Source of the DNA: Clostridia bacterium
Lineage (GTDB): Bacteria > Bacillota > Clostridia > Christensenellales > CAG-138
Assembly (NCBI GenBank): GCA_045592165.1
Contig: JAZNUG010000094.1
Span: 1-38,848, forward strand
DNA: 38,848 nt
Direction of reading: 5' to 3'
Position 1 is the first letter of the stretch. Each line of letters opens with the position of its first letter. Positions 1,196 through 37,495 of this stretch are shown here, piece by piece. Position numbers and translations under genes: made by a program. The notes below the pieces were generated by a model, which was given only the letters and a program-made list of their open reading frames with translations, was not told the origin of the DNA and made no database searches.

Positions 1196-4100
1196 CTATC
1201 CGAAGGTGATGGGAGGCACCTCGTTCTCGCCGCCTGCGCCGAATCCGCCGCCTGCGCTGCCATCAAATATACCGCCGAATGCATCGCTGGTTCTGGCCTT
1301 GATCTTGAAGGATACCGTCTTTGTTCCGCCGAACATGCCCAGTCCCTCAAAGGTAACCTTTGCAGAACCGATGGTTGTGTTCTTCACGTAACTGTTTTCA
1401 ACAACGCGGATATCCTTGCCCAGCTCAAGGGGAATTATTTCCTTGCCAACCTTCATATAAACCTTGCCTTCCACAAACTGGCGCTGATCCACTATGCGGA
1501 TAGGCTTTCCGGTATACTTGTGGTCCATTATCTGTATAGTGGCGCCCTTGATATCATAACCCTTATCCAGTATACGGTATGTACCGGATACAGTGCCCTC
1601 ATAATTGCCGGTGCCAGTTACGGTAATGCGTATCACAGAGCCTGCGGGAACAACAGAACTCTTATTCAGTACGCGGTTTGTGCTGAGCAGCGCACCGTTG
1701 GAATCAGGAATGGCAATAAGGGTGTATACGGCTTCCTTAAGGTATTCCTTGCCGGCAGCAAGCGCCTTGCCGTTTACATCGTATACCTTGAAGGACTGAT
1801 AATAGCCATTGGGCTTGCCGGTTGCCACCTTATCTGCCGCAACGACACTTATACCGCTGTTGTTGTCTATCGTCCTGGGATTGATGATAAAGTTTTCGGT
1901 AATGGTACCGGCAAAGTTGCCCTTGCCCTTTATTACTGCCTGAGGAGGCTTTGCAGCAGCAAAGCTTTCATCGGTATAGACAGCTTTATTGTTCTTGAAG
2001 CTGACGGTGTAATCCACACCCTCTGTCAGCAATTTTCCGTCATTTGCTGCCCAAGCTACACTCAGGGAAGGCACAGTGCCGCCGGCGGTGTATGTGCAGG
2101 AACCGATGTTAACATCAACTGTATCGCCTGAGAGTACAGCCGCATTGATCTTGAAGCTCTGCTTCTTGCTGCCGGTATAACCCTTTTCGGGATTGCCTGT
2201 AAATATTACAGTACCGGTACCCTTTGCAATGTTCTTCTGGTACTCAACTGTGTAATGTATGCCCTCTTCAAGGTCAATACCGGTGGAAGGATCCTTGGCA
2301 TCGGCAAAGTATGCAACAGTCATCCTTGCGCTTCCCTCAAGCTCGGTGGGGCGTATTTCAGCGCCTGTGTAGGCATAGCCTTCCTTAAGGACGTTGTTCA
2401 CTGTTACCTTACTCATGGCAATGCCATTTACCTTGAAGGTTTTTACAACGCTGCCAACGTAAACGATGCCGTCTCCGTCAGCATCTTCCCCTGTACCGGT
2501 GATGATTACGGAAGCTGTGCCGACCACGTCGTTGTTAACGTATTCTACGGTGTAGTCAATACCCTCGTACAGCAGATTCTTGCCGGTGGCCTCATCCTTT
2601 GCCTCGCTCTTATAGCTGAGGGTCAGCTCAGGAACAGCACCGTCTTCAGCCCAGTTTACAGCCTTGATAGAGGCAACGGATACCTTGGACATCAGCACCT
2701 GATCCGCCTTGTTTGCAACGATAAACTGCGCTTTCAGCGTACCGCTGAAATTACCCGCACCGGTAAATGTGACATCATATGAACCGGGAGCGATGCATGC
2801 GCCATGGGTCATGGTGTAGTCAGTCTTAAGCTTGATGGCCTTACCGGTCTGGTTCCAGGTAACCACAGGCTTGGGGGTAAGCGCCTTGCCGGTTTCCGCC
2901 TGAGCGGGAATGGATACTGTAAAGTCATTGCCGTTCAGCTGCACAGGCTTGATGCTGAAGCAGATGTTGATTTTGCCGGAATAGTTGCCCTTCAGGGTGA
3001 CCACGGCATGGGGAGACTTTTTAAGGTTGTTTTCATCGGCAGCAGCAGCGTTCTTATTGTTCTTGTAGGCCACGGTATAATCGGTCTTCTCGACAAGAAG
3101 CTTATTGCCGTCGTACAGGCGGAAAGCAGGGGTCTTTGCAGTTCCGTCATATACGGGGTTTACTATTTTTGTTGCCCAGATGCAATCGGGAATTATGCCG
3201 CCTATGGGCATATCCTCGGGCAGTACATCGCCAACGCCGGTATTCTTTACTTCCACAGTATAGCTAAATTCAGCAGCTTCGCTTATGCCGAATGTATCAA
3301 CCGCGGCAACAGCACGGATTACGGTATCGGTATTTATCTCAATGGGCTCGGCGTAGAGAATCGCCGTATCACCGACAGGCTCGCTGCCATCCACTGTATA
3401 GTAAATGCTTGCACCCTCGCTATCCGTCATCAGGGCCACCTTTGTGCCCTGGGCAACAACTGCGCCGCTCTCGATGCTGGCATAAGGAGCTGCAACGCTG
3501 GAACGCTGCCAGCATGCATACAGCAGAATATCCTCATAGATTCGGGTTTCGGAAGTGAACCTATCGCCCGTGCCCTCAGCGCCGGTAAACCAACCCAGGA
3601 ATTCATAGCCTTCTCTTTCCATAACGGGAAGCTGAACAGCGCTGCCTATATCTATGTACTCTATGCTGTCAATTTCTCCTGCGCCTACGGTATCGAAGGA
3701 TACGGAGACGTACTTGTTCTCCTCCGTTTCCTCGCGCACTTCGCAATAGGCCAATTCTTCGCCAACCCACTTGAATTCTGAATCAAGCCATACAACGCGC
3801 AGCTCTATGCGGGCATACTCATCGTCAGTGCATATCACGCTCTCATTGAAGGGAATATCAAAGCCCAGGAAAGCGGCATCATCTGCATCAACCACAAGGT
3901 TTTTCTCTGCGGGTTCTTGGAATACTACAGTTTCTCCCTTTTTGCCGGTCATATAAACCTGGCATGCATAGACATCCTGTGCGAAAGGATACCAACGGAT
4001 ATCTTCTAACCAATAATAGCCATCGGTCTTTGACATCTTATCAAGGTCGACCTTCATATCAAGGTAGACGGTATTGTCTTCATTGCTGGATACCTTACTG

Positions 4101-5407
4101 GTCTGGACAACGCCGGAGAGAACCCCACCGTTTTCATAATCGTAATATGTATCCACAAGGTCGAAGCGACCGGTATCCGTTACATTTACGGCAGGCTGCT
4201 CCACCTTGGATATGATGCAGTAGCTTTCCTCAACGCCTATGATATTTTCACGGCTGTCCTTCCAATAGAAAGACATATTTACCTTTGTGTCGGTATCATA
4301 CTCGGGCAGGTCATTCACATCCAAAGGTAAGAATATTTCGAGATACCATGTATCCCCTTCAACTTCAACCGTAGGATACTGAATTCCTCTGGCTGTATAC
4401 TCTCCCTTGGTTACTTCATAAGCCAGCTGCCCATCAACCGTCTCGGTATCGGGCATGGCAATACGAATGCCCTCCATCCACAGACCGTCCTGGTACTCTG
4501 TCAGCCAGTCTGTGTACACCTGAACATCCATATATGCGTTGCCTTCATCATCAACGGCAACAGCATATTCCTTGATGCCCTCATTTTCTACATTCTGCAG
4601 AGAAATGCGGTCGGGGTCAGTGATTTTTACAGCTTCAAAATCAGTCCATGTTACGATGCAGTAAGTCTTTTCTTCAAGAATGATTTCGCCGTTGCTGTCT
4701 TTCCAATAGAAAGTCAGATCAACTCTGGTGCTGGAGCCTGCTTCAGGCAGGGCTTTGCTGTAGAATAAAACATCTGCAGCTACACTTCCATCGCTTTCAA
4801 CAGGAAGATCCTCATGCTTCGTCCAGAATCTATTTTCGCTGTCTTCATCGCCTTCCTTTTCCACATCACAGGTAACAGCGCCGATGTCCGGAGCGGTAAC
4901 TTTAACATTATTTATCCAGCAAGTTCCCTCTTCTCCGTACATCATATCCACGTCAAGCTGCGCGTCTATGTATGCATTTCCTTCAGCATCGGTGCGGACA
5001 GCATACCCCACAACAGCGCAATCTGTTATGTATTCAAGGGAAATTCGATTTGTATCAGCAATATAACCTGCCGCTGCATCCGTGACGGGAAGCGTTTGCA
5101 CAGGCACCTCTGCAGGTTCTTCGGATTCCCCCTGTTCCTCCACAGGCTGCTGCGGCAGTTCCTCTTCAGCAGGAATCTCCTCTTCTGTTTGCTCTGTAAC
5201 TTCCTCCTGAGCAGGAACTTCTTCGGACAGAACATCCGGCTCGTCTTCGGAAGGAATATCCTCCACGGGTTCATCTATAATTACTTCTTCAACAGGGTCG
5301 ATATCGGTATCGGCCGCCTGTGCAAAGGCAACACCAACAGGCTGCAGGCAAAGCACAGCCAGCAGCAGCATAGATATTATTCTTTTGATAATGCTGTAAG
5401 ATTTCAC
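1196..5407 (-). CDS. Large secreted multi-repeat surface protein (about 1403 aa)
   Basis: Long ORF. The likely start is the GTG at 5407, with AGGAGG (5414..5419) 6 nt upstream. The signal peptide is KSYSIIKRIISMLLLAVLCLQPVGVAFA. An acidic E/P/Q linker follows, then three unrecognised modules. Next come a Listeria-Bacteroides-type repeat (GYEFLGWF...LYACW) and a GASIYYTVDGSEP motif. About eight repeats of the form DYTV.Y.NN...GTA...GKGN(Y/F).G follow, and the protein ends in a Gly-rich tail. Confidence 0.85.
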   Translation of the reverse strand: MKSYSIIKRIISMLLLAVLCLQPVGVAFAQAADTDIDPVEEVIIDEPVEDIPSEDEPDVLSEEVPAQEEVTEQTEEEIPAEEELPQQPVEEQGESEEPAEVPVQTLPVTDAAAGYIADTNRISLEYITDCAVVGYAVRTDAEGNAYIDAQLDVDMMYGEEGTCWINNVKVTAPDIGAVTCDVEKEGDEDSENRFWTKHEDLPVESDGSVAADVLFYSKALPEAGSSTRVDLTFYWKDSNGEIILEEKTYCIVTWTDFEAVKITDPDRISLQNVENEGIKEYAVAVDDEGNAYMDVQVYTDWLTEYQDGLWMEGIRIAMPDTETVDGQLAYEVTKGEYTARGIQYPTVEVEGDTWYLEIFLPLDVNDLPEYDTDTKVNMSFYWKDSRENIIGVEESYCIISKVEQPAVNVTDTGRFDLVDTYYDYENGGVLSGVVQTSKVSSNEDNTVYLDMKVDLDKMSKTDGYYWLEDIRWYPFAQDVYACQVYMTGKKGETVVFQEPAEKNLVVDADDAAFLGFDIPFNESVICTDDEYARIELRVVWLDSEFKWVGEELAYCEVREETEENKYVSVSFDTVGAGEIDSIEYIDIGSAVQLPVMEREGYEFLGWFTGAEGTGDRFTSETRIYEDILLYACWQRSSVAAPYASIESGAVVAQGTKVALMTDSEGASIYYTVDGSEPVGDTAILYAEPIEINTDTVIRAVAAVDTFGISEAAEFSYTVEVKNTGVGDVLPEDMPIGGIIPDCIWATKIVNPVYDGTAKTPAFRLYDGNKLLVEKTDYTVAYKNNKNAAAADENNLKKSPHAVVTLKGNYSGKINICFSIKPVQLNGNDFTVSIPAQAETGKALTPKPVVTWNQTGKAIKLKTDYTMTHGACIAPGSYDVTFTGAGNFSGTLKAQFIVANKADQVLMSKVSVASIKAVNWAEDGAVPELTLSYKSEAKDEATGKNLLYEGIDYTVEYVNNDVVGTASVIITGTGEDADGDGIVYVGSVVKTFKVNGIAMSKVTVNNVLKEGYAYTGAEIRPTELEGSARMTVAYFADAKDPSTGIDLEEGIHYTVEYQKNIAKGTGTVIFTGNPEKGYTGSKKQSFKINAAVLSGDTVDVNIGSCTYTAGGTVPSLSVAWAANDGKLLTEGVDYTVSFKNNKAVYTDESFAAAKPPQAVIKGKGNFAGTITENFIINPRTIDNNSGISVVAADKVATGKPNGYYQSFKVYDVNGKALAAGKEYLKEAVYTLIAIPDSNGALLSTNRVLNKSSVVPAGSVIRITVTGTGNYEGTVSGTYRILDKGYDIKGATIQIMDHKYTGKPIRIVDQRQFVEGKVYMKVGKEIIPLELGKDIRVVENSYVKNTTIGSAKVTFEGLGMFGGTKTVSFKIKARTSDAFGGIFDGSAGGGFGAGGENEVPPITFG

Positions 5408-5522
5408 GGTATACCTCCTATGAATTCTCATATGTAAATATATCATATCACATTTGTTATTTTCTTTCCACATCATACAATGTATTTCCGGACGAATATT
5501 GATTTTTTTACTGACGGCATAT

Positions 5523-5556
5523 AAAAAGTGCGAAGAAAACAGCTCTTCGCACTTTT
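5523..5556 (-). terminator. Intrinsic terminator after the sortase-anchored protein gene
   Basis: The stem GTGCGAAGA / TCTTCGCAC (5528..5552) is followed in minus sense by TTTTT. Confidence 0.7.
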
Positions 5557-5584
5557 ATCGGAATCTATTTGGTTACGAAAGCAT

Positions 5585-7288
5585 TTATTCCTCGTCCTTG
5601 CGACGCTTGAGCAGGCAGAGAGCTGCAATGCCCATAGCTGCGGCAGGGCTCATAAGGCCTATATCGCCGGTCTTGGGGAAGGACAGGCTGCCATATACCA
5701 CGTTAAGGGTAAAGGTAGGAGTATTTACAGTCTTGCATCCGTTGCTGATTACGCAGCGATACTTATATCCGTCCATCTTAGAGGATACGTCTTTTACGGT
5801 GTAATTGGCACAGGTGGCGCCCTTTATCTTGACAAAGCCGCAGCCGTCACCCTTATCCACATACCACTGGCAGCTGTCGCCGCAGGAAAGAGCAACCTTG
5901 AAGATCACATCCTCGCCGGGACGAACGCTTACGCACTTGCCGGAATGATGATTCATGCCGCAACAGGGCTTGGAATGGGTACTGGAAGTCCTGGTTACCT
6001 TTACGGCAACATCATCCTCGGAAGAGGCCAGCTCTTCTGTGCCGCTGTATACCGCCTTTACGGTATTGTCGCCAACCTTGAACTTGTTTTTGTCAGATGC
6101 GGAAATTTTCCAGGAAATCAGGGGCTTTACATCGACTGCTTTGCCGTAGGCCTCACCGTTTATATAGAGCTGAACGGTTCCCTCGGTAACAGAATTGCCC
6201 TCAGCATCCTTTACGGTTACCTGATAGGTTACGGAAGAGCCGCGAGTAACCTTGCTGCGGGAAGCCTTTATCTTGGTAGTGGTTTCTGCCTTGGCAGGCT
6301 CGGTCTGAGTTTCCTGCTCAAATGCAGCCACGAGATTGCGGTTGGTTGCAGCTTCAAATGTAAGAGCAGCTTCAGTGCTTACCACTGCGCCGTTTTCCTT
6401 CCATGCTACAAACTTGTAGCCCTCGTTTGCCGCTGCAATAAGGGTTACGGAATCGCCATTGTTATAGGTACCGCCGCCGGCAACAAGACCGCCTTCGGAG
6501 GGAGTTGCCACTGCAGTGATGGTGCAGGTTTCCTGCTCCTCCGCCTCAAACTTTGCAACGAGGGTGCGGTTGGTCCTGGCTTCAAAGGTAAAGGAAGCAT
6601 CAGCGCTTACTTCTGCGCCATTTTCCCTCCATGCTACAAACTTGTAGCCCTCATTTGCCGCTGCGGTAACGGTAACAGAAGCACCCTTGCTATATGTGCC
6701 GCCGCCGGTAACAACGCCGCCTTCAGAGGGAGTTGCCGCAACGTCAATAACACACTCTTCCTGCTCGGCGGCTTCAAACTTTGCAAAGAGATTGCGGTCG
6801 CCATCCACAGTGAAGGTGTAGGTGGTTTCGGTGGTCAGAACCGCGCCGTTTTCCTTCCATGCAACAAAGACATAGCCTTCGTTTGCCACCGCGGTAACGG
6901 TTGCCTGTGCATCCTTTTCATAGGTGCCTGCACCGGATACAGAACCGCCCGCCTGAGGAGTAGCCCCTGCAGCAACGGTGAAGGTTACGGGGTCCTGGAT
7001 ATTGTTCTGAAGCTGTTCCCCGCTCTGAGACTGTTTTCCCTCATCGGACTTGTTTTCATCAGACAGCTGCTCACCTTCGGACTGATTTTCCTCGCCGGTC
7101 AGCTGCTCGCCTTCGGACTGGTTTTCCCCGCCGGTCAGCTGGTCACCATCAGGCTGATTTTCGCCGCCGGGCAGATTGTCTCCCATGCCCTGCTCAGAGT
7201 AGTTTTCACCTTCCTGAGCAAAAGCTACGGACGGAAGCAGACTTGTAAGCATAAGCGCACAAATCAGCACAGCAATAAAACGTTTCAT
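5585..7288 (-). CDS. Cell-wall-anchored surface protein with InlB B-repeat-like units, Ig-like domains and an LPXTG-type (FPKTG) sorting signal
   Basis: The ATG at 7288 has GGAGGG 7 nt upstream, and the signal peptide is MKRFIAVLICALMLTSLLPSVAFA. There are three units of the form ANEGY.FVAW.ENGA...F. The C-terminus reads FPKTGD, then a hydrophobic stretch, then KRRKDEE. Confidence 0.85.
   Translation of the reverse strand: MKRFIAVLICALMLTSLLPSVAFAQEGENYSEQGMGDNLPGGENQPDGDQLTGGENQSEGEQLTGEENQSEGEQLSDENKSDEGKQSQSGEQLQNNIQDPVTFTVAAGATPQAGGSVSGAGTYEKDAQATVTAVANEGYVFVAWKENGAVLTTETTYTFTVDGDRNLFAKFEAAEQEECVIDVAATPSEGGVVTGGGTYSKGASVTVTAAANEGYKFVAWRENGAEVSADASFTFEARTNRTLVAKFEAEEQETCTITAVATPSEGGLVAGGGTYNNGDSVTLIAAANEGYKFVAWKENGAVVSTEAALTFEAATNRNLVAAFEQETQTEPAKAETTTKIKASRSKVTRGSSVTYQVTVKDAEGNSVTEGTVQLYINGEAYGKAVDVKPLISWKISASDKNKFKVGDNTVKAVYSGTEELASSEDDVAVKVTRTSSTHSKPCCGMNHHSGKCVSVRPGEDVIFKVALSCGDSCQWYVDKGDGCGFVKIKGATCANYTVKDVSSKMDGYKYRCVISNGCKTVNTPTFTLNVVYGSLSFPKTGDIGLMSPAAAMGIAALCLLKRRKDEE
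6305..6988 (-). repeat. Three in-frame tandem copies of a 228-bp (76-aa) unit inside the surface-protein gene
   Basis: The landmark CCATGC(T/A)ACAAA recurs at 6401, 6629 and 6857, an exact period of 228 bp. The protein units are ATPSEGG..GGGTY...ANEGYKFVAW.ENGA....F.A..NR.LVA.FE. The outer boundaries are approximate. Confidence 0.75.
7067..7174 (-). repeat. Three in-frame tandem copies of a 36-bp (12-aa) unit
   Basis: The units at 7067..7102, 7103..7138 and 7139..7174 encode LPGGENQPDGDQ / LTGGENQSEGEQ / LTGEENQSEGEQ. Confidence 0.85.
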
Positions 7289-7562
7289 TTTGATACCCTC
7301 CAATCATCCTTTGGCTGAAAATCTCACACAAATATTACTCAGCTGTCAGCCATATACACAGCGCATAAGCGTTCATAAGAATGTATGGTACATTTTAGTG
7401 GTTTATCCCGAAAATTTCAAGCAAATTCGGCATTATTTACAAATCCATAAAAAATCGGACATAATTTCATGCTTCAAAGTGCGTTTTTATGCAGATTATC
7501 CGCTTGATCTACGGATTGCCGCCCATAATTCAGCAGCCCGCCATGCTCCGCGCTTATGTTTT

Positions 7563-8966
7563 TCAGGATGTGACACTCTCCGCGTACCACGCATCAAACT
7601 CAGGGGGTATGGCGGTAAAGCGCAGTTTCCAGCCCTTCTCCTCCCTGGATATTACCTTACAGAACAGCTTTGCGCCTATTTCCAGGTGCAGATTGTCATA
7701 TTCCTCTATTGCCACGGCAGTTTCCAGTACGGCCTCCCTGGGGGACAGCGCGGTGATCATGCCCCTGTTTGCTTCAAGGTCGCTGTGCTTGCCCTTGATA
7801 ATATAGAATTCGACCTTTCGGGGAGAATTGAGCGGCCTCAGTTCCTCATTATTCCGCGCCTGACAGGACAGGCCGTATTTACCGCCTATACCCATGACAT
7901 TTGTAAGCACAAGGGGCGCCTTGATACCCTTGGGGAATACCACCAGTTCCTTATCCACGGCAAGGGGTTCACCGATAAGCTCCCTTGTCTGGGGAGATAT
8001 CAATATCTGTCCGCCAACGGTATAGCTTTCGATTCGTCCGCAGAGGTTTGCATTCTTACCAACCACGCCGTACTTCGTGCGCTTTTCCGAGCCGATATTG
8101 CCTATAATCACATCGCCGGTATTTATGCCGATGCCCATTTCCAGTTTTGGGTATCCCCGCTGCAGATTCCATTGGTTTACGGCTTCCATTCTCGCCTGCA
8201 TTTCCACCGCCGCAGCCACCGCCTCAGATGCATGGTTTTCCGAAGGCAGAGGTGCGCCGAATATGGCCACGATGCTGTCTCCCATGAATTCTATTATTGT
8301 GCCGTTTCTCTGCTGTATTATTCCCGTCATATCACCGAAATAATGATTGAGCATGGCCAGCAGGTCATGGGGCTCCATCCTTTCGCTCAGCGCAGTAAAG
8401 CCCCGCAGATCGCTCATAAGTATAGTAATAAACCGCTTCTTTCCGCCCATTTCAAGGCCGTTTGGCGTTTCCAGAAGCTGACGGACTATCTCATCCGAAA
8501 GAAACCGGCCAAAGGTATCGCTGAGCAGGTTATTCCGCATTTCCAGCTTTTTATTCAGGCCGTGGATGTACTCTATGGCCTCTGCAGTATTGCCAAGCTC
8601 CACAATTCCGCTGACATCGCTCAGCGCAGCGATGACTCCCGCCTTTTCCCCATTATCATCCTTGAGATAAGATGTAGACACATACAGCTGCTTGAACTTT
8701 TCTCCGGTAAAATACGGGATTATTCCCCTGTAAGATGGAGCTGTACCAAACACTGCATCCAGCATGGTTTGATTAAATGACGCATTGCCCTCAAAACAGA
8801 ATGAACAGCGGGCGAAGCTTTGCCCTATGAGCTCCTGCTCCCCCCTTCCCAGTATGCGGGCCGCCGCAGGATTGGCATAGGTAATGGCACCATCAAAGTC
8901 GATGATGATTATGCCCTGGGCCATATCCCGCATTATGCTTTCATGGGTCAGTTTTGTGGTGCTCAT
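7563..8966 (-). CDS. PAS-domain class III nucleotidyl cyclase with an extra C-terminal beta-rich domain
   Basis: The ATG at 8966 overlaps the upstream stop as ATGA. The PAS-like N-terminus reads IIIDFDGAITYANPAAARILG. The cyclase homology domain contains ILMSDLRGFT, FMGDSIVAIFGAP, IGINTGDVIIGNIGS and GKNANLCGRIES. A tail of about 120 aa remains unassigned and may be a degenerate PilZ-like domain. Confidence 0.85.
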   Translation of the reverse strand: MSTTKLTHESIMRDMAQGIIIIDFDGAITYANPAAARILGRGEQELIGQSFARCSFCFEGNASFNQTMLDAVFGTAPSYRGIIPYFTGEKFKQLYVSTSYLKDDNGEKAGVIAALSDVSGIVELGNTAEAIEYIHGLNKKLEMRNNLLSDTFGRFLSDEIVRQLLETPNGLEMGGKKRFITILMSDLRGFTALSERMEPHDLLAMLNHYFGDMTGIIQQRNGTIIEFMGDSIVAIFGAPLPSENHASEAVAAAVEMQARMEAVNQWNLQRGYPKLEMGIGINTGDVIIGNIGSEKRTKYGVVGKNANLCGRIESYTVGGQILISPQTRELIGEPLAVDKELVVFPKGIKAPLVLTNVMGIGGKYGLSCQARNNEELRPLNSPRKVEFYIIKGKHSDLEANRGMITALSPREAVLETAVAIEEYDNLHLEIGAKLFCKVISREEKGWKLRFTAIPPEFDAWYAESVTS

Positions 8967-9748
8967 TCCCTTTCCTTTCCGCCGCAAAACCAGCCGTGCT
9001 GTCTGAGATAAGTCAATGATCTTTTCACGCCTTCTATTCCGCCCACCTCAAGGGTAACAGGAATGTTTCCGCTAAGGCTGCGCCGCATTCTGTCAGCCTT
9101 TTCCCAATCCACAGTTCCTTCGCCAATGGCCATATGATTATCGTATTTTCCATAGTTGTCCGACAGATGCAGGTATCCTATATAATCACCCAGCCTGTCA
9201 AACCAAGCCTCCATGGGAGCATTGGAGTAATTCACATGGCCGATATCCAGACACACCTTTACCCTGTCGCCGGACACCCGTTTCATTATGGCTTCCAACG
9301 GATCGGGATCTATATCCATGCTGTTTTCAACGCATATTGTTAAGCCATGCTTCTCCGCAAGCTCCATGAAATATTGGGCGGTGGTATCCGCCCAGCCGTC
9401 AATATACGCTCCCCTCAGGAAAGGCGCGCAGCTGGAATGAAACACCACCCATTCCGCGCCTATCTCTCGGGCAAAAAGACAGCTCTGCTCGCAGCACATT
9501 CTGGAATGCGCCCTCACGGCAGACGATGCGCTGGCAGGATTCACATCTATAAATGCACCGTGGATGGCTCTGGTGCGCCCAAGACTTTTATGCCAGGCCT
9601 TAAGTTCATTGCATAGGGACTCATTTGCCATGGCGGGAGCCATGAACATTTCTATGGGCTCATAATAAAGATTTTCCCGCAGAGCAAATTCGCGGCATAT
9701 ATCCCGCTCGTCATATCTTGGCTGTATCTGAAAAAAGAACTCTGACAT
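8963..9748 (-). CDS. Xylose-isomerase-like TIM-barrel protein (sugar phosphate isomerase/epimerase family)
   Basis: 261 aa. The motif series VVFHSS, ICVEN, CLDIGH, LHLSDN and VTLEV is typical of the AP-endonuclease-2 / xylose-isomerase-like fold. The gene starts 6 nt after the upstream stop. Confidence 0.8.
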   Translation of the reverse strand: MSEFFFQIQPRYDERDICREFALRENLYYEPIEMFMAPAMANESLCNELKAWHKSLGRTRAIHGAFIDVNPASASSAVRAHSRMCCEQSCLFAREIGAEWVVFHSSCAPFLRGAYIDGWADTTAQYFMELAEKHGLTICVENSMDIDPDPLEAIMKRVSGDRVKVCLDIGHVNYSNAPMEAWFDRLGDYIGYLHLSDNYGKYDNHMAIGEGTVDWEKADRMRRSLSGNIPVTLEVGGIEGVKRSLTYLRQHGWFCGGKERE

Positions 9749-9754
9749 AATCGA

Positions 9755-10276
9755 TTACCTGTTTTTGTCAATGAAGTTATATATGTTTCCGCTGTCGCTG
9801 ACGCCGGCTATGGCCTCGGCATAGTCGCTGATGAATTTGCCTACCTTCTCAATAAACCAGCTGCTTCCGGATTTTTCCTCTTTTTCGGCTTCAACGATTT
9901 CGGTTACTGCCCGGCAGGCTTCCATATAGTCATGGGTCAGCTGACGTATACGTTTGCTCATGTTCTTCATCATATCCAGCAGCACATCAGGATCATCGCC
10001 GAAATAACTGCCGAAGTTTTCCCCGCTGATAAGGAATACCTCAACGTCCTCCAGCGCCACCGCCGCAGCAGAGCGGCGCATGGAATCGATCAGTCCCATT
10101 TCGCCGAAGGTTGCGCCATGTCCTCCGCTTATCTCTGTAAGCAGCTTTTCATCCGGGCCGCCGAAGTTTGCGTATATTCCCACTCTGCCCCTGTTGAGAA
10201 CATACATCCACATTTCAAAGCTGCCCTCTTCAAATATAACATCACCTTTTTTATAATAACGGATCATATCTTCCAT
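9755..10276 (-). CDS. Stand-alone cyclic-nucleotide-binding (CNB) domain protein with no HTH
   Basis: 173 aa. The phosphate-binding cassette reads FGEMGLIDSMRRSAAAVA. The C-terminal helical extension contains RIRQLTHDYMEACRAV and SSWFIEKVGKFISDY. An AAGGAG RBS overlaps the end of the upstream gene. Confidence 0.85.
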   Translation of the reverse strand: MEDMIRYYKKGDVIFEEGSFEMWMYVLNRGRVGIYANFGGPDEKLLTEISGGHGATFGEMGLIDSMRRSAAAVALEDVEVFLISGENFGSYFGDDPDVLLDMMKNMSKRIRQLTHDYMEACRAVTEIVEAEKEEKSGSSWFIEKVGKFISDYAEAIAGVSDSGNIYNFIDKNR

Positions 10277-10284
10277 GCCTGATA

Positions 10285-10782
10285 TTACTCCTTATCTGCA
10301 CAGTCTGCCGTCGTTTTCCTATAATCCTCCACAAACTTTCCTGCTCTGTCCCGGAACCAGCCGCTCTTTTCCCCGCCGCTCTCCTGAGATTCCACCGCTT
10401 CCTTTACCGCGCGGCAGGCATCCATATAATCTCCGGTAAGGGTGCGTATACGCTTACCCATGCTCTGCATGACGGCGATAACCTTTTCCGGCCGTTCCCT
10501 AAGATAACGGCTGAAGGTATTCCTGTTGATTACCTCCACCCTTGTTTCCCTTTCCAGCGCAACGGCAGTGGCGCTGCGGGGCGCTTCATCCACAAGGCCC
10601 ATCTCCCCGAAGATGTCATCTCCCCTGAGCCGGGCAAGCATCTTCTCTGCGGATGTGCCGTAATTAAGGTATATACCAACGCTTCCCCAGCGGATATCAT
10701 ACATACAGTCCGCAGGGTCTCCCTGTCTGAATATTATTTCACCTTTTTTATAGGATTTATATTCTCTTGCGTATTCCGACAT
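10285..10782 (-). CDS. Stand-alone CNB domain protein, paralog of 9755..10276
   Basis: The cassette reads FGEMGLVDEAPRSATAVA. The same C-terminal pattern appears as RIRTLTGDYMDACRAV and SGWFRDRAGKFVEDY. I chose the ATG at 10782 (MSEY...); the GTG at 10788 is an alternative. Confidence 0.85.
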   Translation of the reverse strand: MSEYAREYKSYKKGEIIFRQGDPADCMYDIRWGSVGIYLNYGTSAEKMLARLRGDDIFGEMGLVDEAPRSATAVALERETRVEVINRNTFSRYLRERPEKVIAVMQSMGKRIRTLTGDYMDACRAVKEAVESQESGGEKSGWFRDRAGKFVEDYRKTTADCADKE

Positions 10783-10933
10783 AAGCACAGGCTTGCCTTT
10801 CGTAAGATTGTATTCATTATACAGGTATATGCAGCAGCAGATATGTTTTCATTATCAGTATATCTGAAAATACTGAACACAGCAATCCTAATCGGCCGAT
10901 AATGCTGTTTAAAGCAAAAGAAGCTGGCAGAAC

Positions 10934-21309: not shown

Positions 21310-21338
21310 TTGACACTGCACGTCACATAATATATAAT
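21310..21338 (+). promoter_or_regulatory. Consensus sigma-A promoter of the T-box leader
   Basis: TTGACA (21310..21315), an exact 17-nt spacer, then TATAAT (21333..21338). Confidence 0.7.
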
Positions 21339-21360
21339 TCAATGCAATTGGTATTGAACA

Positions 21361-21640
21361 GGCGATGACGGCGAAATAGTACCGTGTACGGATCCTTCAG
21401 AGAATTGACGGTTGGTGCAAGTCAACAGGCTGCCGCATGGGAATACACGCCATCAGCCTCCCCCCGAAAGGCAACCGGTAGGCGGGGACGGGCTTCACCC
21501 GTTACAGTGATAGAGTATAGGGGCGGCGTATGCCGCATTAGGGTACTCGAAAAGGTCCGGTATTGCGAGATCCGGATAAATTGAGGTGGTAACACGGGAT
21601 TTGGCGCTCGTCCTCTGCATGTCAGGGGACGGGCTTTTTT
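21361..21640 (+). promoter_or_regulatory. T-box riboswitch leader with a Tyr (UAC) specifier
   Basis: Stem I carries a GAUGA K-turn (21364..21368), AGUA (21378..21381), AGAGA (21399..21403) and the distal loop GGUGCAA (21414..21420). The specifier loop reads GAA-UAC-A (21441..21447). The F-box CCGUUA is at 21499..21504. The T-box sequence AAAUUGAGGUGGUAACACGGG is at 21578..21598. The terminator is GCTCGTCCTCTG / CAGGGGACGGGC (21606..21634) followed by TTTTTT. Confidence 0.9.
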
Positions 21641-21724
21641 GTTCCCGGAATTTTATCGGCCGGTATCGCCGCCAAAGGATACCTCCGAAAAATCAAATTT
21701 TTATTTTTCAGGAGGAAACTCAAA

Positions 21725-23170
21725 ATGTCCAAGGTAAAATTCTTCAGCGGCGAAAATATACCACTTGAGATGCACAAGGTACGCATCGTACAGAAACTGA
21801 ACCTGCCTCCCGTAGGACGCCGCCTCGAGGCCATTCAGGAGGCCGGCTGCAATACCTTCCTGCTTCAGACCCGGGATGTATTCATGGATATGCTGACCGA
21901 CAGCGGCGTAAACGCCATGAGCGACAATCAGCTTGCCGCCATGATGGCCGCAGATGACGCATACGCAGGCAGTGAAACATTCAACCGTCTCCATGCAAAG
22001 CTGCAGGAGATATTCGGCATGGAATTTTTCCTTCCCGCCCATCAGGGCCGCGCTGCGGAGCACATCATTGCTAAGACCTTCGTAAAAAGCGGCGATGTTG
22101 TTGCCATGAATTTCCACTTTACCACCACTAAAGCACACATAACCGAATGCGGCGGCACTGTTGAAGAACTTGTCAGCGATGAAGGCATCAACACTGCAAG
22201 CAGCTGCCTTTTCAAGGGCAATATGGACCTTGATAAGCTCCGTGACAGCATTGAGCGCAACAGGGGCCGCATGGCTTTCCTGCGCCTTGAAGCGGGCACT
22301 AACCTTATCGGCGGCCAGCCATTCTCCCTGGCTAACTGCAAAGCCGCAACCAAGCTTGCCCGGGATAACGGCATACTTACAGTACTGGACGCAAGCCTGC
22401 TGCAGGATAATCTCCACTTCATAAAAACCCGCGAAGCGGAATGCAGGGATATGTCCATCCGTGAAATCACCCGCGCCATTGCGGATTGTTTTGATATAGT
22501 ATACTTCTCTGCCCGCAAGCTGGGCTTTGCCCGGGGCGGCGGCATCTGTGTGCGCGACAAGGCTCTGCGGGACCGCATGATGGAGCTTATCCCCATGTTT
22601 GAAGGTTTCCTTACCTACGGCGGCATGAGCGTGCGCGAAATGGAAGCCATCACCGTTGGCCTTGATGAAACCATGGATGAAGACGTAATCAGTCAGGGTC
22701 CTCAGTTTATCGAATTTATGACCAATGAGCTTCTCAAGCGCGGCATACCCGTTGTAACCCCTGCCGGCGGCCTTGGCTGCCATATTAATGCCCGGGAGTT
22801 CCTGCCCCATCTGGATGACCATCAGTACCCTGCAGGCGCCCTTGCGGCAGCCATATACATCGCAAGCGGCATCCGCGGCATGGAACGCGGCACCCTGTCT
22901 GAACAGCGAGAGCCTGACGGAACCGAGCCCATCGCCCAGATGGAGCTGGTACGCCTTGCACTCCCCCGCCGTGTATTCACCCTGTCTCAGGTAATGTACG
23001 CTGTGGACCGCATTGACTGGCTGTTCCGCAACCGGCATCTTATCGGCGGCCTGCGCTGGGTAGAAGAGCCCAAGACTCTCCGTTTCTTCTTCGGCAGGCT
23101 GGAAGCAGACAGCGGCTGGCAGCAGCAGCTTGCCGATGCATTCTGCAGAGACTTCGGCGATAGCCTGTGA
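21725..23170 (+). CDS. tpl: Beta-eliminating PLP lyase with a tyrosine phenol-lyase-type active site
   Basis: 481 aa, alignable along its full length to tryptophanase/TPL. The PLP-lysine segment is SARK. FTTT matches TPL Thr124 (tryptophanase has FDTT). GMERG matches TPL Met379/Arg381 (tryptophanase has VEIG). LRFFF matches TPL Phe448/449 (tryptophanase has LRHF). The RBS is CAGGAGGAA. Confidence 0.88.
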   Translation: MSKVKFFSGENIPLEMHKVRIVQKLNLPPVGRRLEAIQEAGCNTFLLQTRDVFMDMLTDSGVNAMSDNQLAAMMAADDAYAGSETFNRLHAKLQEIFGMEFFLPAHQGRAAEHIIAKTFVKSGDVVAMNFHFTTTKAHITECGGTVEELVSDEGINTASSCLFKGNMDLDKLRDSIERNRGRMAFLRLEAGTNLIGGQPFSLANCKAATKLARDNGILTVLDASLLQDNLHFIKTREAECRDMSIREITRAIADCFDIVYFSARKLGFARGGGICVRDKALRDRMMELIPMFEGFLTYGGMSVREMEAITVGLDETMDEDVISQGPQFIEFMTNELLKRGIPVVTPAGGLGCHINAREFLPHLDDHQYPAGALAAAIYIASGIRGMERGTLSEQREPDGTEPIAQMELVRLALPRRVFTLSQVMYAVDRIDWLFRNRHLIGGLRWVEEPKTLRFFFGRLEADSGWQQQLADAFCRDFGDSL

Positions 23171-23178
23171 TACATACA

Positions 23179-23208
23179 AAAAAGGCGTGATACCCTATCA
23201 CGCCTTTT
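23179..23208. terminator. Bidirectional intrinsic terminator
   Basis: AAAAAGGCGTGATA-CCC-TATCACGCCTTTT lies between the convergent tpl-like and MFS genes. Confidence 0.85.
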
Positions 23209-23220
23209 AAAATGCTCTTT

Positions 23221-24444
23221 TTAGGCCTGTAAGCCTGTTTCCTTGTATTCCTTTATACCGAAGGTTATCACGATGCCCATAATGCCGAAAGCCAGTATTA
23301 CCAGGAAGGTTCCCGCATATGAAAGGCTGCCGCAGGCAGGTCCCAGATAAGAGGCAATAATCAGGTTAAGGTTTACAAGGCTGAAATTGAATGCGTAGTT
23401 CTTAGTGCCGAAAAAATAAGAAGCATACGCAGAGTTTGTGGGAGTAACGCCGCCATAGGCAAGACCAAGTAAAATGAATCCTGCGGCCAGCACGGGAATG
23501 CTCACGGTGCTGTTTGCAATAAGCAATGCAGCGGAAGCACATATGAACATGGCACAAACGCCCAGCATGGTTTTACGGTAACCGATTCTGTCAAACAGCT
23601 GACCGAAAATTATACGGCCCACTCCGTTTGCAATTGACACCATTCCCGCAAGCGCAGCGGCTCTGGCCAGATTTTCCCCGACAAAGCACTGGGCAAAGGA
23701 AGCCGCCTCGTTCATAACCGCAAGGCCTGCCGCAGAAAGGATTACAGCCCATGCAAAATACAGCCAGAACTGCCTGCAGCCTATCATCTGTTTCCATTCC
23801 ATCTCCCTGAGGGATGCCTTTGCCTTGTTGCCTGCGGCCATTTTGGCGGCAAACTCAGCAGGAGCCAGTTTAAGGATAAAGGAGCCTATAAGAATAACCG
23901 CAAAGAACACAAAGCCGAATATCAGGAAGGTTCTGCGCCAGCCAATAGAGCCGATAAGGTTTGCGCTCAGGGTGCCGAATACCATACCGCCAAAGCCGAA
24001 GCCCATAAGCGCGATGCCGGAAACCAGGCCCTTTTTATCCGGGAACCAGGACATCACCACGCTAAGGCAGGAATTGTAGCCAAGGCCTACGCCAAGGCCG
24101 CAAAGAAGGCTGTAAGTACAGCAGATGCCCAGAAGACCCTTTGCCGCAGAGGCCGCACTGAAGCCGGCCAGCATGCATAACGCGCTGCATATTACGGTTA
24201 CACGGATGCTGAACCTTCTCTGCATTATACCGGAAGCAAGGCCGCCCAGACAGAACAGCATCATGCTGACAGAGAACACCAGAGAGGCCTGAGAAGCCGT
24301 CCAGCCGAACTCAGTTTCAAGGGGTATCCTGAATACCGACCAGGCGTAAATAAGCCCCAGAAACAGCAGCAGCAGCGTGCAAAGCACAAGGTATCCCCAG
24401 CGGAGGGTTTTATAATCCGGGGCAATGTTTTTTTCTTTAGTCAT
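23221..24444 (-). CDS. MFS transporter (oxalate/formate-antiporter-like family)
   Basis: About 407 aa from the ATG at 24444 (RBS AGAGGAAAAAGT). There are 12 hydrophobic segments and a central loop around KAKASLREMEWKQ. Confidence 0.8.
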   Translation of the reverse strand: MTKEKNIAPDYKTLRWGYLVLCTLLLLFLGLIYAWSVFRIPLETEFGWTASQASLVFSVSMMLFCLGGLASGIMQRRFSIRVTVICSALCMLAGFSAASAAKGLLGICCTYSLLCGLGVGLGYNSCLSVVMSWFPDKKGLVSGIALMGFGFGGMVFGTLSANLIGSIGWRRTFLIFGFVFFAVILIGSFILKLAPAEFAAKMAAGNKAKASLREMEWKQMIGCRQFWLYFAWAVILSAAGLAVMNEAASFAQCFVGENLARAAALAGMVSIANGVGRIIFGQLFDRIGYRKTMLGVCAMFICASAALLIANSTVSIPVLAAGFILLGLAYGGVTPTNSAYASYFFGTKNYAFNFSLVNLNLIIASYLGPACGSLSYAGTFLVILAFGIMGIVITFGIKEYKETGLQA

Positions 24445-24534
24445 ACTTTTTCCTCTGTAAAAAATGGATATTATCAATTATACAACAGGTTTTGTATTTT
24501 ATCTCGAATTTTTGTCTGTTTCCAAACCGCCTGC

Positions 24535-36340: not shown

Positions 36341-36850
36341 TTATTTTGACGCGCTTCCCGCTGCTGTTTCTATGGCGCGAAGCAATGTCGGCAACAGCAC
36401 AGCCGTAACGGCAAAGTTTCCTGCACAATGCAGAATATCAAATGGTATTCCGCTGACCCAATAGGAGAATCCTGCGGCCCATCCTCCGGCAAAAAGATAC
36501 GGTACGGCGCACATCGCCCCGAAACACAGCCCAAATATCGCAGAAACTATCGCCCAGAACAACCTCCCTCTGTTGTTTCTGAACAGCATCACAATACATA
36601 CCAGAAGCGGCCATATGTAAAGATACGATATCCACCATATGCTGAAGCCGAATATCAGCCCCTCCAGCATAACATACACCGCCACCGCATACAGCATCCG
36701 CCAGCCGAAGTATATTGTGCCGGCTATTATGAAAACTGCCACGGGATGAATATTGGGCAGCGCCATCATTGCAGCCTTGAGGGCAAACATCAGCGCCCCC
36801 AGCATGCCCAGAACCGCCATCTCACGAACAGAAAGCCCTTTACCAGTCAT
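36341..36850 (-). CDS. Small polytopic membrane protein, ECF-type S-component-like (putative cobalamin-related)
   Basis: 169 aa with 5-6 hydrophobic helices. It overlaps the upstream DUF4430-like gene by 11 nt and lies downstream of a cobalamin riboswitch. Confidence 0.65.
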   Translation of the reverse strand: MTGKGLSVREMAVLGMLGALMFALKAAMMALPNIHPVAVFIIAGTIYFGWRMLYAVAVYVMLEGLIFGFSIWWISYLYIWPLLVCIVMLFRNNRGRLFWAIVSAIFGLCFGAMCAVPYLFAGGWAAGFSYWVSGIPFDILHCAGNFAVTAVLLPTLLRAIETAAGSASK

Positions 36851-37299: not shown

Positions 37300-37495
37300 C
37301 CGGGCAGATATATCTGCCATTATTATACCAATCGGCCGGGGTTCCGCAGCTCTTTGCAAGGCTCTTTGGGCAGGTAATCTGACTTGAGGGAGTTATCCCT
37401 TTCACAGTGACGGCCTCGCGGAAGAATCTCACTTCCATTCCCCTGTTAACCATGGGCTATTGCCCACGGAACCCAAAGATGTACTGTATTCAGTT
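37300..37495 (-). promoter_or_regulatory. Cobalamin (B12) riboswitch
   Basis: In minus sense, P1 pairs GGGUUCCG with GCGGAACCC. The core reads AACAGGGAA, GGAAGUGAGAUUCUUCC and GCCGUCACUGU. The B12 box AGUCAGAUUACCUGCCC is at plus-strand 37368..37384. The expression-platform hairpin GGCAGAUAUAUCUGCC is at 37303..37318. Confidence 0.85.

Follow-up and report, generated by a model that had tools for sequence, protein, structure and literature searches.

The 38,848-nucleotide stretch of Clostridia bacterium DNA analysed here (contig JAZNUG010000094.1 of assembly GCA_045592165.1; hereafter the window) carries on its forward strand a gene for a beta-eliminating lyase that depends on pyridoxal 5'-phosphate (PLP), preceded by a T-box leader RNA with a tyrosine specifier. 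The lyase resembles tyrosine phenol-lyase (TPL) and tryptophanase (TnaA), and the leader is predicted to allow its expression when tyrosine is scarce. Taken together, the two suggest that the enzyme may supply tyrosine. The features of the locus are collected in the table.

Features of the lyase locus, numbered along the window
Feature	Position	Strand	Basis
Sigma-70-type promoter, TTGACA-17 nt-TATAAT	21310..21338	+	12/12 consensus matches
T-box leader RNA with Stems I, II and III and an antiterminator	21356..21618	+	RF00230 match
Specifier loop, 3' side, GAA-UAC-A	21441..21447	+	cmscan alignment and Stem I fold
Antiterminator helix with 7-nt bulge UGGUAAC	21583..21615	+	fold, -7.9 kcal/mol
Intrinsic terminator: 12-bp stem, 5-nt loop, U6 tract	21606..21640 (hairpin 21606..21634)	+	fold
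Ribosome-binding site AGGAGG, 9 nt before ATG	21710..21715	+	read from sequence
PLP-dependent beta-eliminating lyase, 481 aa	21725..23170	+	PF01212
Bidirectional terminator hairpin ending the lyase transcript and the convergent MFS gene	23180..23208		hairpin scan
Major facilitator superfamily (MFS) transporter gene, convergent with the lyase	23221..24477	-	ORF/Pfam analysis

The initial annotation of this DNA described a consensus promoter followed by a complete T-box leader, and both were recovered independently, the promoter by a promoter scan and the leader by cmscan against Rfam 15. The leader is the sole T-box found in the window and matches RF00230 over the full model (1-219) with 98.5 bits (E 1.1e-20), above the curated gathering score of 93 bits and well past anything chance would give. 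The covariance-model alignment also agrees with the annotated specifier: GGGAA-UAC-A falls on the specifier segment, so that the tyrosine codon UAC (21444..21446) occupies the specifier position and is followed by a purine (21447). When Stem I is folded alone, a GGCG/CGCC pairing closes the specifier internal loop as had been claimed, GAAUACA forms the 3' strand of that loop, and the purine after UAC abuts the lower helix of the stem. The distal part of Stem I contains the expected AGAGA and GGUUGGUG motifs, and the AGAGA and GGUNGGUG distal columns are conserved across 18 leaders.

The second tRNA contact is equally well defined. The UGGU of the antiterminator bulge lies where it was annotated (21587..21590) and would pair with a tRNA 3' end ACCA, that is, with a tRNA whose discriminator base is A. 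The 3' strand of the antiterminator is shared with the intrinsic terminator, and the two structures are therefore mutually exclusive, as is characteristic of RF00230 leaders with a UGGN bulge. The antiterminator is weak compared with the terminator (-24.1 kcal/mol, z -4.6), and equally good terminator folds arose in 0 of 200 shuffles. RNAalifold analysis of the 18 leaders found compensatory changes in 22 of 31 pairs, including pairs of both antiterminator helices. Judged from these motifs and folds, the architecture is that of a transcriptional T-box, off by default and on when stabilised by tRNA, and the element is best explained as a T-box transcription attenuator of the canonical class I type, with tRNA-Tyr as its predicted ligand.

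The lyase had been annotated as the only gene downstream of the T-box, and this remains so: a single open reading frame (ORF) precedes the terminator, and no ORF lies between the leader and the lyase gene. Because the bidirectional hairpin and the convergent MFS gene follow on the 3' side, the lyase transcript is monocistronic. The other neighbours in the window encode an iron-containing alcohol dehydrogenase (Fe-ADH), flavin adenine dinucleotide (FAD)/ferredoxin oxidoreductases, the MFS transporter, a DUF5714 protein and a SpoU methylase; none of these neighbour genes has an evident tie to aromatic amino acids. No tRNA-Tyr gene was found in the window. On the minus strand, a 492-aa ORF (21701..23179) covers the entire lyase gene, and homologous antisense ORFs overlie the lyase in 91 of 162 related loci. 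This ORF was considered as a gene and is read instead as a shadow ORF, produced by the conservation of the lyase together with codon bias.

Profile searches place the lyase in its superfamily and exclude it from the named enzyme groups. It scores 155.9 bits against PF01212 (Beta_elim_lyase; cut-off 27) and 551.6 bits against the broad subfamily model NF009709 (cut-off 285). Its scores fall well below the cut-offs of the TPL equivalog TIGR02618 (402.7 bits, cut-off 720.7) and of the tryptophanase equivalogs TIGR02617 (317.6 bits, cut-off 825.8) and NF053783 (348.3 bits, cut-off 750). The database name "tryptophanase", which is attached to most of the named members of the group, arises only from the broad NF009709 model. 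The best PDB matches are TPLs (E about 1e-103), with tryptophanases next (about 1e-80), and the fold is taken as fixed on the strength of the matches to solved TPLs. The lyase is 39% identical to Citrobacter freundii TPL and 35% identical to Escherichia coli TnaA, two enzymes that are 43% identical to each other; in a distance tree, its clade sits on a long branch of its own outside the TPL+TnaA group.

Residue conservation was counted over 81 clade members from many phyla, using C. freundii TPL numbering. Tyr71, Arg100, Phe123, Thr124, Asn185, Asp214, Lys257, Met379, Arg381 and Arg404 are kept in 81/81, Phe448/449 in 80/81 and Phe36 in 79/81. The window protein itself has the TPL pocket and catalytic residues Tyr71, Thr124, Lys257, Met379, Arg381, Arg404 and Phe448/449. 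At positions 124, 379, 381 and 448 it has T, M, R and F, whereas D, V, I and H are found in the indole pocket of E. coli TnaA; the F at position 449 is common to E. coli TnaA and TPL. The residue comparison thus upholds the TPL-type diagnostic residues (Thr124, Met379/Arg381 and Phe448/449) by which the initial annotation had distinguished the protein from TnaA.

A different picture emerges at positions where TPL and TnaA agree. Here the clade invariably differs from both, with E69D, R217L, K256R, H343L and F346H among other replacements, and thus lacks the Glu69, Arg217, Lys256 and His343 that the two enzymes have in common. Further replacements relative to TPL are T216S and M288F, both invariant, and N262R (80/81). 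From TPL structures, we take Arg217 to contact O3' of PLP, and Glu69, Gly52 and Asn262 to form the monovalent-cation site; Glu69, Arg217, Lys256 and His343 are presumably all in the surroundings of PLP and that site, as assigned in the TPL structural literature. Since the ring pocket is conserved but residues at the PLP and cation site are replaced, the pocket points to tyrosine or phenol and the cofactor environment appears remodelled.

The window lyase is thus a member of a third and previously unrecognised subfamily beside TPL and tryptophanase. The initial description as a tyrosine phenol-lyase-type gene stands with respect to the tyrosine pocket, but it does not extend to the whole protein, which is below the TIGR02618 cut-off, branches outside TPL+TnaA and is without Arg217, Lys256, Glu69 and His343. 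Phenol-producing Firmicutes have canonical TPLs whose identity to the C. freundii enzyme is about 70% (PMC6424909); these form a different group from the clade of the window lyase.

Members of the subfamily are widespread. A scan of genomes, one per species, matched at least 600 stretches, at least 588 of them encoding relatives, and at least 588 stretches matched in each of the two public collections searched (genomes and metagenomes). The best 80 of at least 588 genome loci were analysed, and likewise 80 metagenome loci; taxon labels are those of the metagenome-assembled genome (MAG) records. The best 80 genome relatives are 63-75% identical to the window protein, and a pig-gut metagenome relative in syntenic context is 88% identical. 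Represented among the genome loci are Firmicutes, Spirochaetes, Actinobacteria, Proteobacteria, Acidobacteria, Planctomycetes and Verrucomicrobia/Kiritimatiellota. Relatives were found in Oscillospiraceae, Christensenellales, Tissierellaceae, Halanaerobiales, Bacillales, Spirochaetes and Propionibacteriales, and also in Rhodopseudomonas, Thauera, Thiocapsa, Acidobacteriota, Planctomycetes, Kiritimatiellota and Akkermansia.

The pairing of T-box and lyase recurs in many of these loci, as detected by a combination of motif search, Rfam and a hidden Markov model built from 18 leaders. A T-box lies directly 5' of the lyase in 27 of the best 80 genome loci (27/45 of those labelled Firmicutes, 0/35 of those from other phyla) and in 16 of the 80 metagenome loci, and two further lineages have a lyase-linked T-box (loci L081 and L089). 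Altogether the leader was found in 45 loci, always immediately 5' of the lyase. The specifier AAUAC(A/G) is invariant in these leaders (28/28 in the genome set, 16/16 in the metagenome set), as is the UGGU bulge in all lyase-linked leaders, and many orders of Firmicutes retain the pairing with this invariant UAC specifier. One locus (L133, 6720..7045, plus strand) contains a second T-box immediately 3' of its lyase with the Tyr T-box. This second element has the specifier CAC and the bulge UGGG, which denote histidine, and fronts a hisZ/HisS-like gene; it was rejected as part of the lyase system, since its His specifier serves the hisZ-like gene. Because CAC and UGGG fall in the same alignment columns as UAC and UGGU, the specifier read-out is discriminating.

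Neighbouring ORFs were clustered first over 80 and then over 162 loci. The large apparent neighbour clusters were rejected, because they consist of antisense shadow ORFs inside the lyase gene. The lyase is almost always solitary, in surroundings that change from locus to locus; in the contexts P0005, P0036 and P0046, it stands alone amid unrelated housekeeping genes. Two loci have a different context. In L062, a Tyr T-box precedes the lyase, and a gene for 3-deoxy-D-arabino-heptulosonate 7-phosphate (DAHP) synthase comes 61 nt after the lyase; in a Kiritimatiellota MAG (L030, 4001..8807) the lyase is followed on the same strand by DAHP synthase and a 472-aa prephenate dehydratase. The context of these two loci is consistent with an anabolic role, although numerically weak. 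About 290 C-terminal residues of the L030 prephenate dehydratase have no Pfam match. The tRNA gene adjoining the lyase in L002 is a tRNA-Ser gene. In a Firmicutes MAG (L047), a NiCo riboswitch (RF02683, 69.6 bits; 5634..5740, plus strand) lies about 190 nt 3' of the lyase.

The switch would be expected to work as follows. Transcription would start at the consensus promoter, and the terminator would form by default, so that no lyase is made. Under tyrosine shortage, uncharged tRNA-Tyr (anticodon GUA, discriminator A73) would dock on Stem I; its anticodon would pair with the UAC specifier, and the UGGU bulge would take up its free ACCA end. Binding would stabilise the weak antiterminator and allow RNA polymerase to read into the lyase gene. 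The RNA part of this mechanism, with GUA of tRNA-Tyr on UAC and ACCA on UGGU, is a secure prediction, and we infer that tRNA-dependent read-through takes place in the Clostridia bacterium of the window.

What the lyase does once it is made can be approached from the regulatory logic. The functions that a T-box switches on are solely those by which charged tRNA is restored, so the role of the lyase is most likely tyrosine supply, probably by formation of a C-C bond on phenol. The donor could be pyruvate plus ammonium, as in the reverse TPL reaction, or serine or a similar compound in a beta-replacement; either way phenol would be salvaged to tyrosine, much as indole is salvaged by TrpB. Two arguments lead to this role: the T-box serves the restoration of charged tRNA and the phenol/tyrosine pocket of TPL is kept, and a switch that brought on tyrosine destruction in tyrosine-starved cells would defeat itself, yet the pairing persists in different Firmicutes orders. 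The initial annotation had noted that the RNA specifier and the enzyme pocket both point to tyrosine, and the UAC specifier and the kept pocket residues bear this out. We give a probability of roughly 0.55 to the reading that the lyase is a tyrosine-starvation-induced, tyrosine-forming and phenol-salvaging enzyme, its substrate and its direction in vivo being inferred from the regulatory logic. The gut and digester habitats of many of the source MAGs probably provide phenol.

Several observations weigh against a tyrosine-forming role. No conserved neighbour gene was found in the 162 loci, the largest true neighbour family being present in 5, and neighbours from aromatic biosynthesis occur in only the two loci described above. 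The T-box is absent from 18 of the 45 Firmicutes-labelled loci (2 of them with little upstream sequence) and from all non-Firmicutes members, and a catabolic role is plausible in members from phototrophs and aromatic degraders such as Rhodopseudomonas and Thauera. In a separate look-up, a Pseudoflavonifractor orthologue that is 74% identical to the window protein (L085) also proved to have no T-box, so the element has been lost or replaced in some close relatives; the linkage, whose comparison in relatives the initial annotation had proposed, is thus conserved in many Firmicutes but not in all. The upstream region of L085 (5769..6000) has a TTGACG-17-TATAAT promoter with a short leader and adjoins a divergent 244-aa gene without a Pfam match. 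The chemistry presents a further difficulty. Breakdown is the favoured direction of the TPL reaction, and synthesis normally requires millimolar phenol (PMC13578870), so that simple reversal is doubtful without high phenol and ammonium or a different chemistry. This is one of the grounds for suspecting that the remodelled active site carries out something other than simple reversal. In addition, R217L, K256R, E69D and H343L mean that the reaction of the subfamily may not be the TPL reaction.

These replacements would also make sense if the lyase acted on a related substrate, such as a tyrosine analogue or antimetabolite that blocks tyrosyl-tRNA synthetase (TyrRS), or another beta-substituted amino acid, and so relieved tyrosine limitation indirectly under a canonical T-box. 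R217L, K256R, E69D, H343L and M288F are invariant in the 81 members and N262R is nearly so, all around the PLP and cation site, and both the score below the TPL equivalog cut-off and the branching outside TPL+TnaA fit such a change of substrate. However, the TPL residues that bind the 4-hydroxyphenyl ring and its hydroxyl group (Thr124, Arg381, Phe448/449, Met379 and Phe36) are conserved, every lyase-linked leader has a Tyr specifier, and no accessory genes of an analogue pathway are linked to the lyase. A related substrate therefore seems unlikely, although it deserves to be kept in mind. At the other extreme, the T-box could be a decaying or non-functional relic, or could regulate something other than the lyase. 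The window leader scores only 5.5 bits above Rfam's high gathering threshold, and ten related leaders score under it. Such decay is scarcely credible given that the functional motifs are all intact, the promoter is perfect, the strong terminator overlaps the antiterminator and covariation is present; as for another target, the leader occurs in 45 loci, always immediately 5' of the lyase, with no other ORF in between.

It could also be that the lyase is an ordinary catabolic TPL under unconventional logic, for example with tyrosine starvation standing in for amino-acid or carbon starvation in general and residual tyrosine being converted to pyruvate and ammonium. The characterised relatives (TPL and TnaA) are all catabolic, the thermodynamics favour breakdown (PMC13578870), and aromatic degraders such as Thauera and Rhodopseudomonas are among the hosts outside Firmicutes. 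This explanation is nevertheless improbable. Destroying tyrosine while tRNA-Tyr is uncharged would worsen starvation, and the invariant UAC linkage has nonetheless been kept across many Firmicutes orders. The T-box surveys consulted discuss synthetases, biosynthetic enzymes and transporters, and those in PMC2494555 and PMC3766115 name no tryptophanase or phenol-lyase (and no lyase at all in the one checked for it). Moreover, the TPL that phenol-producing Firmicutes use is a canonical one, with about 70% identity to that of C. freundii (PMC6424909), whereas identity in the case of the window clade is 39%.

The tyrosine-forming reading can be taken a step further. The subfamily might be a natural, dedicated tyrosine synthase, in which the remodelled PLP and cation site (R217L, K256R, E69D, N262R and H343L) biases the enzyme to C-C bond formation on phenol, for instance with serine as donor, and leaves little back-reaction by lyase activity. 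In some lineages it might then complete a de novo route that does not pass through prephenate but leads from chorismate through 4-hydroxybenzoate and phenol to tyrosine. Such a route would explain why the lyase is co-transcribed or clusters with DAHP synthase and prephenate dehydratase but with no visible tyrosine-branch gene (L062 and L030). This extended proposal is speculative and rather unlikely.

The window contains other features of potential interest. The minus strand carries a cobalamin riboswitch aptamer at 37352..37491 (RF00174; 42 bits, gathering score 31.5; E 2e-7), and the first minus-strand ORFs 3' of it include one for a 169-aa protein without a Pfam match (36341..36850). Also on the minus strand, a gene for a PAS-domain adenylate/guanylate cyclase (7563..8987) is followed by one for a xylose-isomerase-like TIM-barrel protein (8963..9748), and two small proteins that bind cyclic nucleoside monophosphates (cNMP) are encoded at 9755..10276 and 10285..10788; the region 7563..10788 has the look of a compact gene cluster for cyclic-nucleotide signalling. 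The same strand encodes, at 1196..7303, two large surface-type proteins (1426 and 572 aa) with Listeria-Bacteroides repeat and InlB B-repeat domains.

The window RNA adds a new member to a family already known, and with it the Tyr regulon gains a gene that is absent from the surveyed T-box discussions. The initial annotation knew of no description of this pairing, and none came to light in the searchable literature: full-text searches combining T-box with tyrosine phenol-lyase (both spellings) or tryptophanase returned nothing relevant, although the pairing may be listed in the 2008 survey of Vitreschak and colleagues or in the RegPrecise or TBDB tables. Tryptophanase and phenol-lyase go unmentioned in the comparative T-box and riboswitch regulon surveys (PMC2494555, PMC3766115), and the TBDB paper mentions no lyase or tryptophanase.

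The T-box is of value here as a direct, sequence-encoded statement of physiological purpose for the subfamily, and the way the subfamily is regulated implies the opposite role to the one its characterised relatives play. If the anabolic reading is true, many gut and digester anaerobes could turn phenol, a uraemic-toxin precursor and common fermentation product, into tyrosine, and the family would be the tyrosine counterpart of indole salvage. Inferences from gut metagenomes that count these lyase genes as indole or phenol producers would need correction. The family would also be a natural starting point for biocatalytic synthesis of tyrosine and L-DOPA-type compounds, a field that now relies on TPL reversal at high phenol or on engineered TrpB.

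The closest known counterpart of the RNA is the Bacillus subtilis tyrS leader, the founding Tyr-specific T-box, which has the specifier UAC. By established knowledge of tyrS, the two share the RF00230 family, UAC followed by a purine, a UGGN bulge that reads the discriminator base and the competition between terminator and antiterminator. They differ in their targets, as the window T-box controls a homologue of a degradative lyase and not a synthetase, a classical biosynthetic gene or a transporter. The enzyme is best compared with the TPLs of C. freundii and Erwinia herbicola (EC 4.1.99.2; PDB 2EZ1, 1C7G), with which it shares the fold, the PLP lysine, Tyr71, Thr124, Met379, Arg381, Arg404 and Phe448/449. 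It departs from the C. freundii enzyme in its low overall identity (39%) and in E69D, T216S, R217L, K256R, N262R, M288F and H343L. Regulation differs as well: enterobacterial tpl is induced by tyrosine through TyrR, whereas the window gene is apparently wired to respond to uncharged tRNA-Tyr, which is the opposite logic.

There are also precedents for the proposed direction of the reaction. BhTnaA of Blastocystis, a horizontally acquired TnaA homologue, prefers to convert indole to tryptophan (PMC8448343); it belongs to the TnaA/TPL family and is reported to favour the amino-acid-forming direction, as is proposed here for the window lyase. Unlike the window lyase, BhTnaA is eukaryotic, horizontally acquired, tryptophan-specific and without a T-box. 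TPL supports the synthesis of tyrosine analogues from phenols in living cells, and an engineered PLP-dependent tyrosine synthase (TyrS) derived from TrpB makes tyrosine from phenol and serine without lyase activity (PMC13578870 and work cited there). The chemistry of engineered TyrS is one of the options proposed for the window lyase; unlike the latter, it is a laboratory product with a type II fold. To our knowledge, engineered TyrS has no natural counterpart. Another precedent comes from the Bacillus cereus group, where phenylalanine-4-hydroxylase and a tyrosine biosynthesis operon are under Tyr T-box control (Wels et al. 2008, PMC2494555). The enzyme family is a different one, and the precursor is phenylalanine there and presumably phenol here, but a Tyr T-box drives the one-step formation of tyrosine from an alternative precursor there and would do so here.

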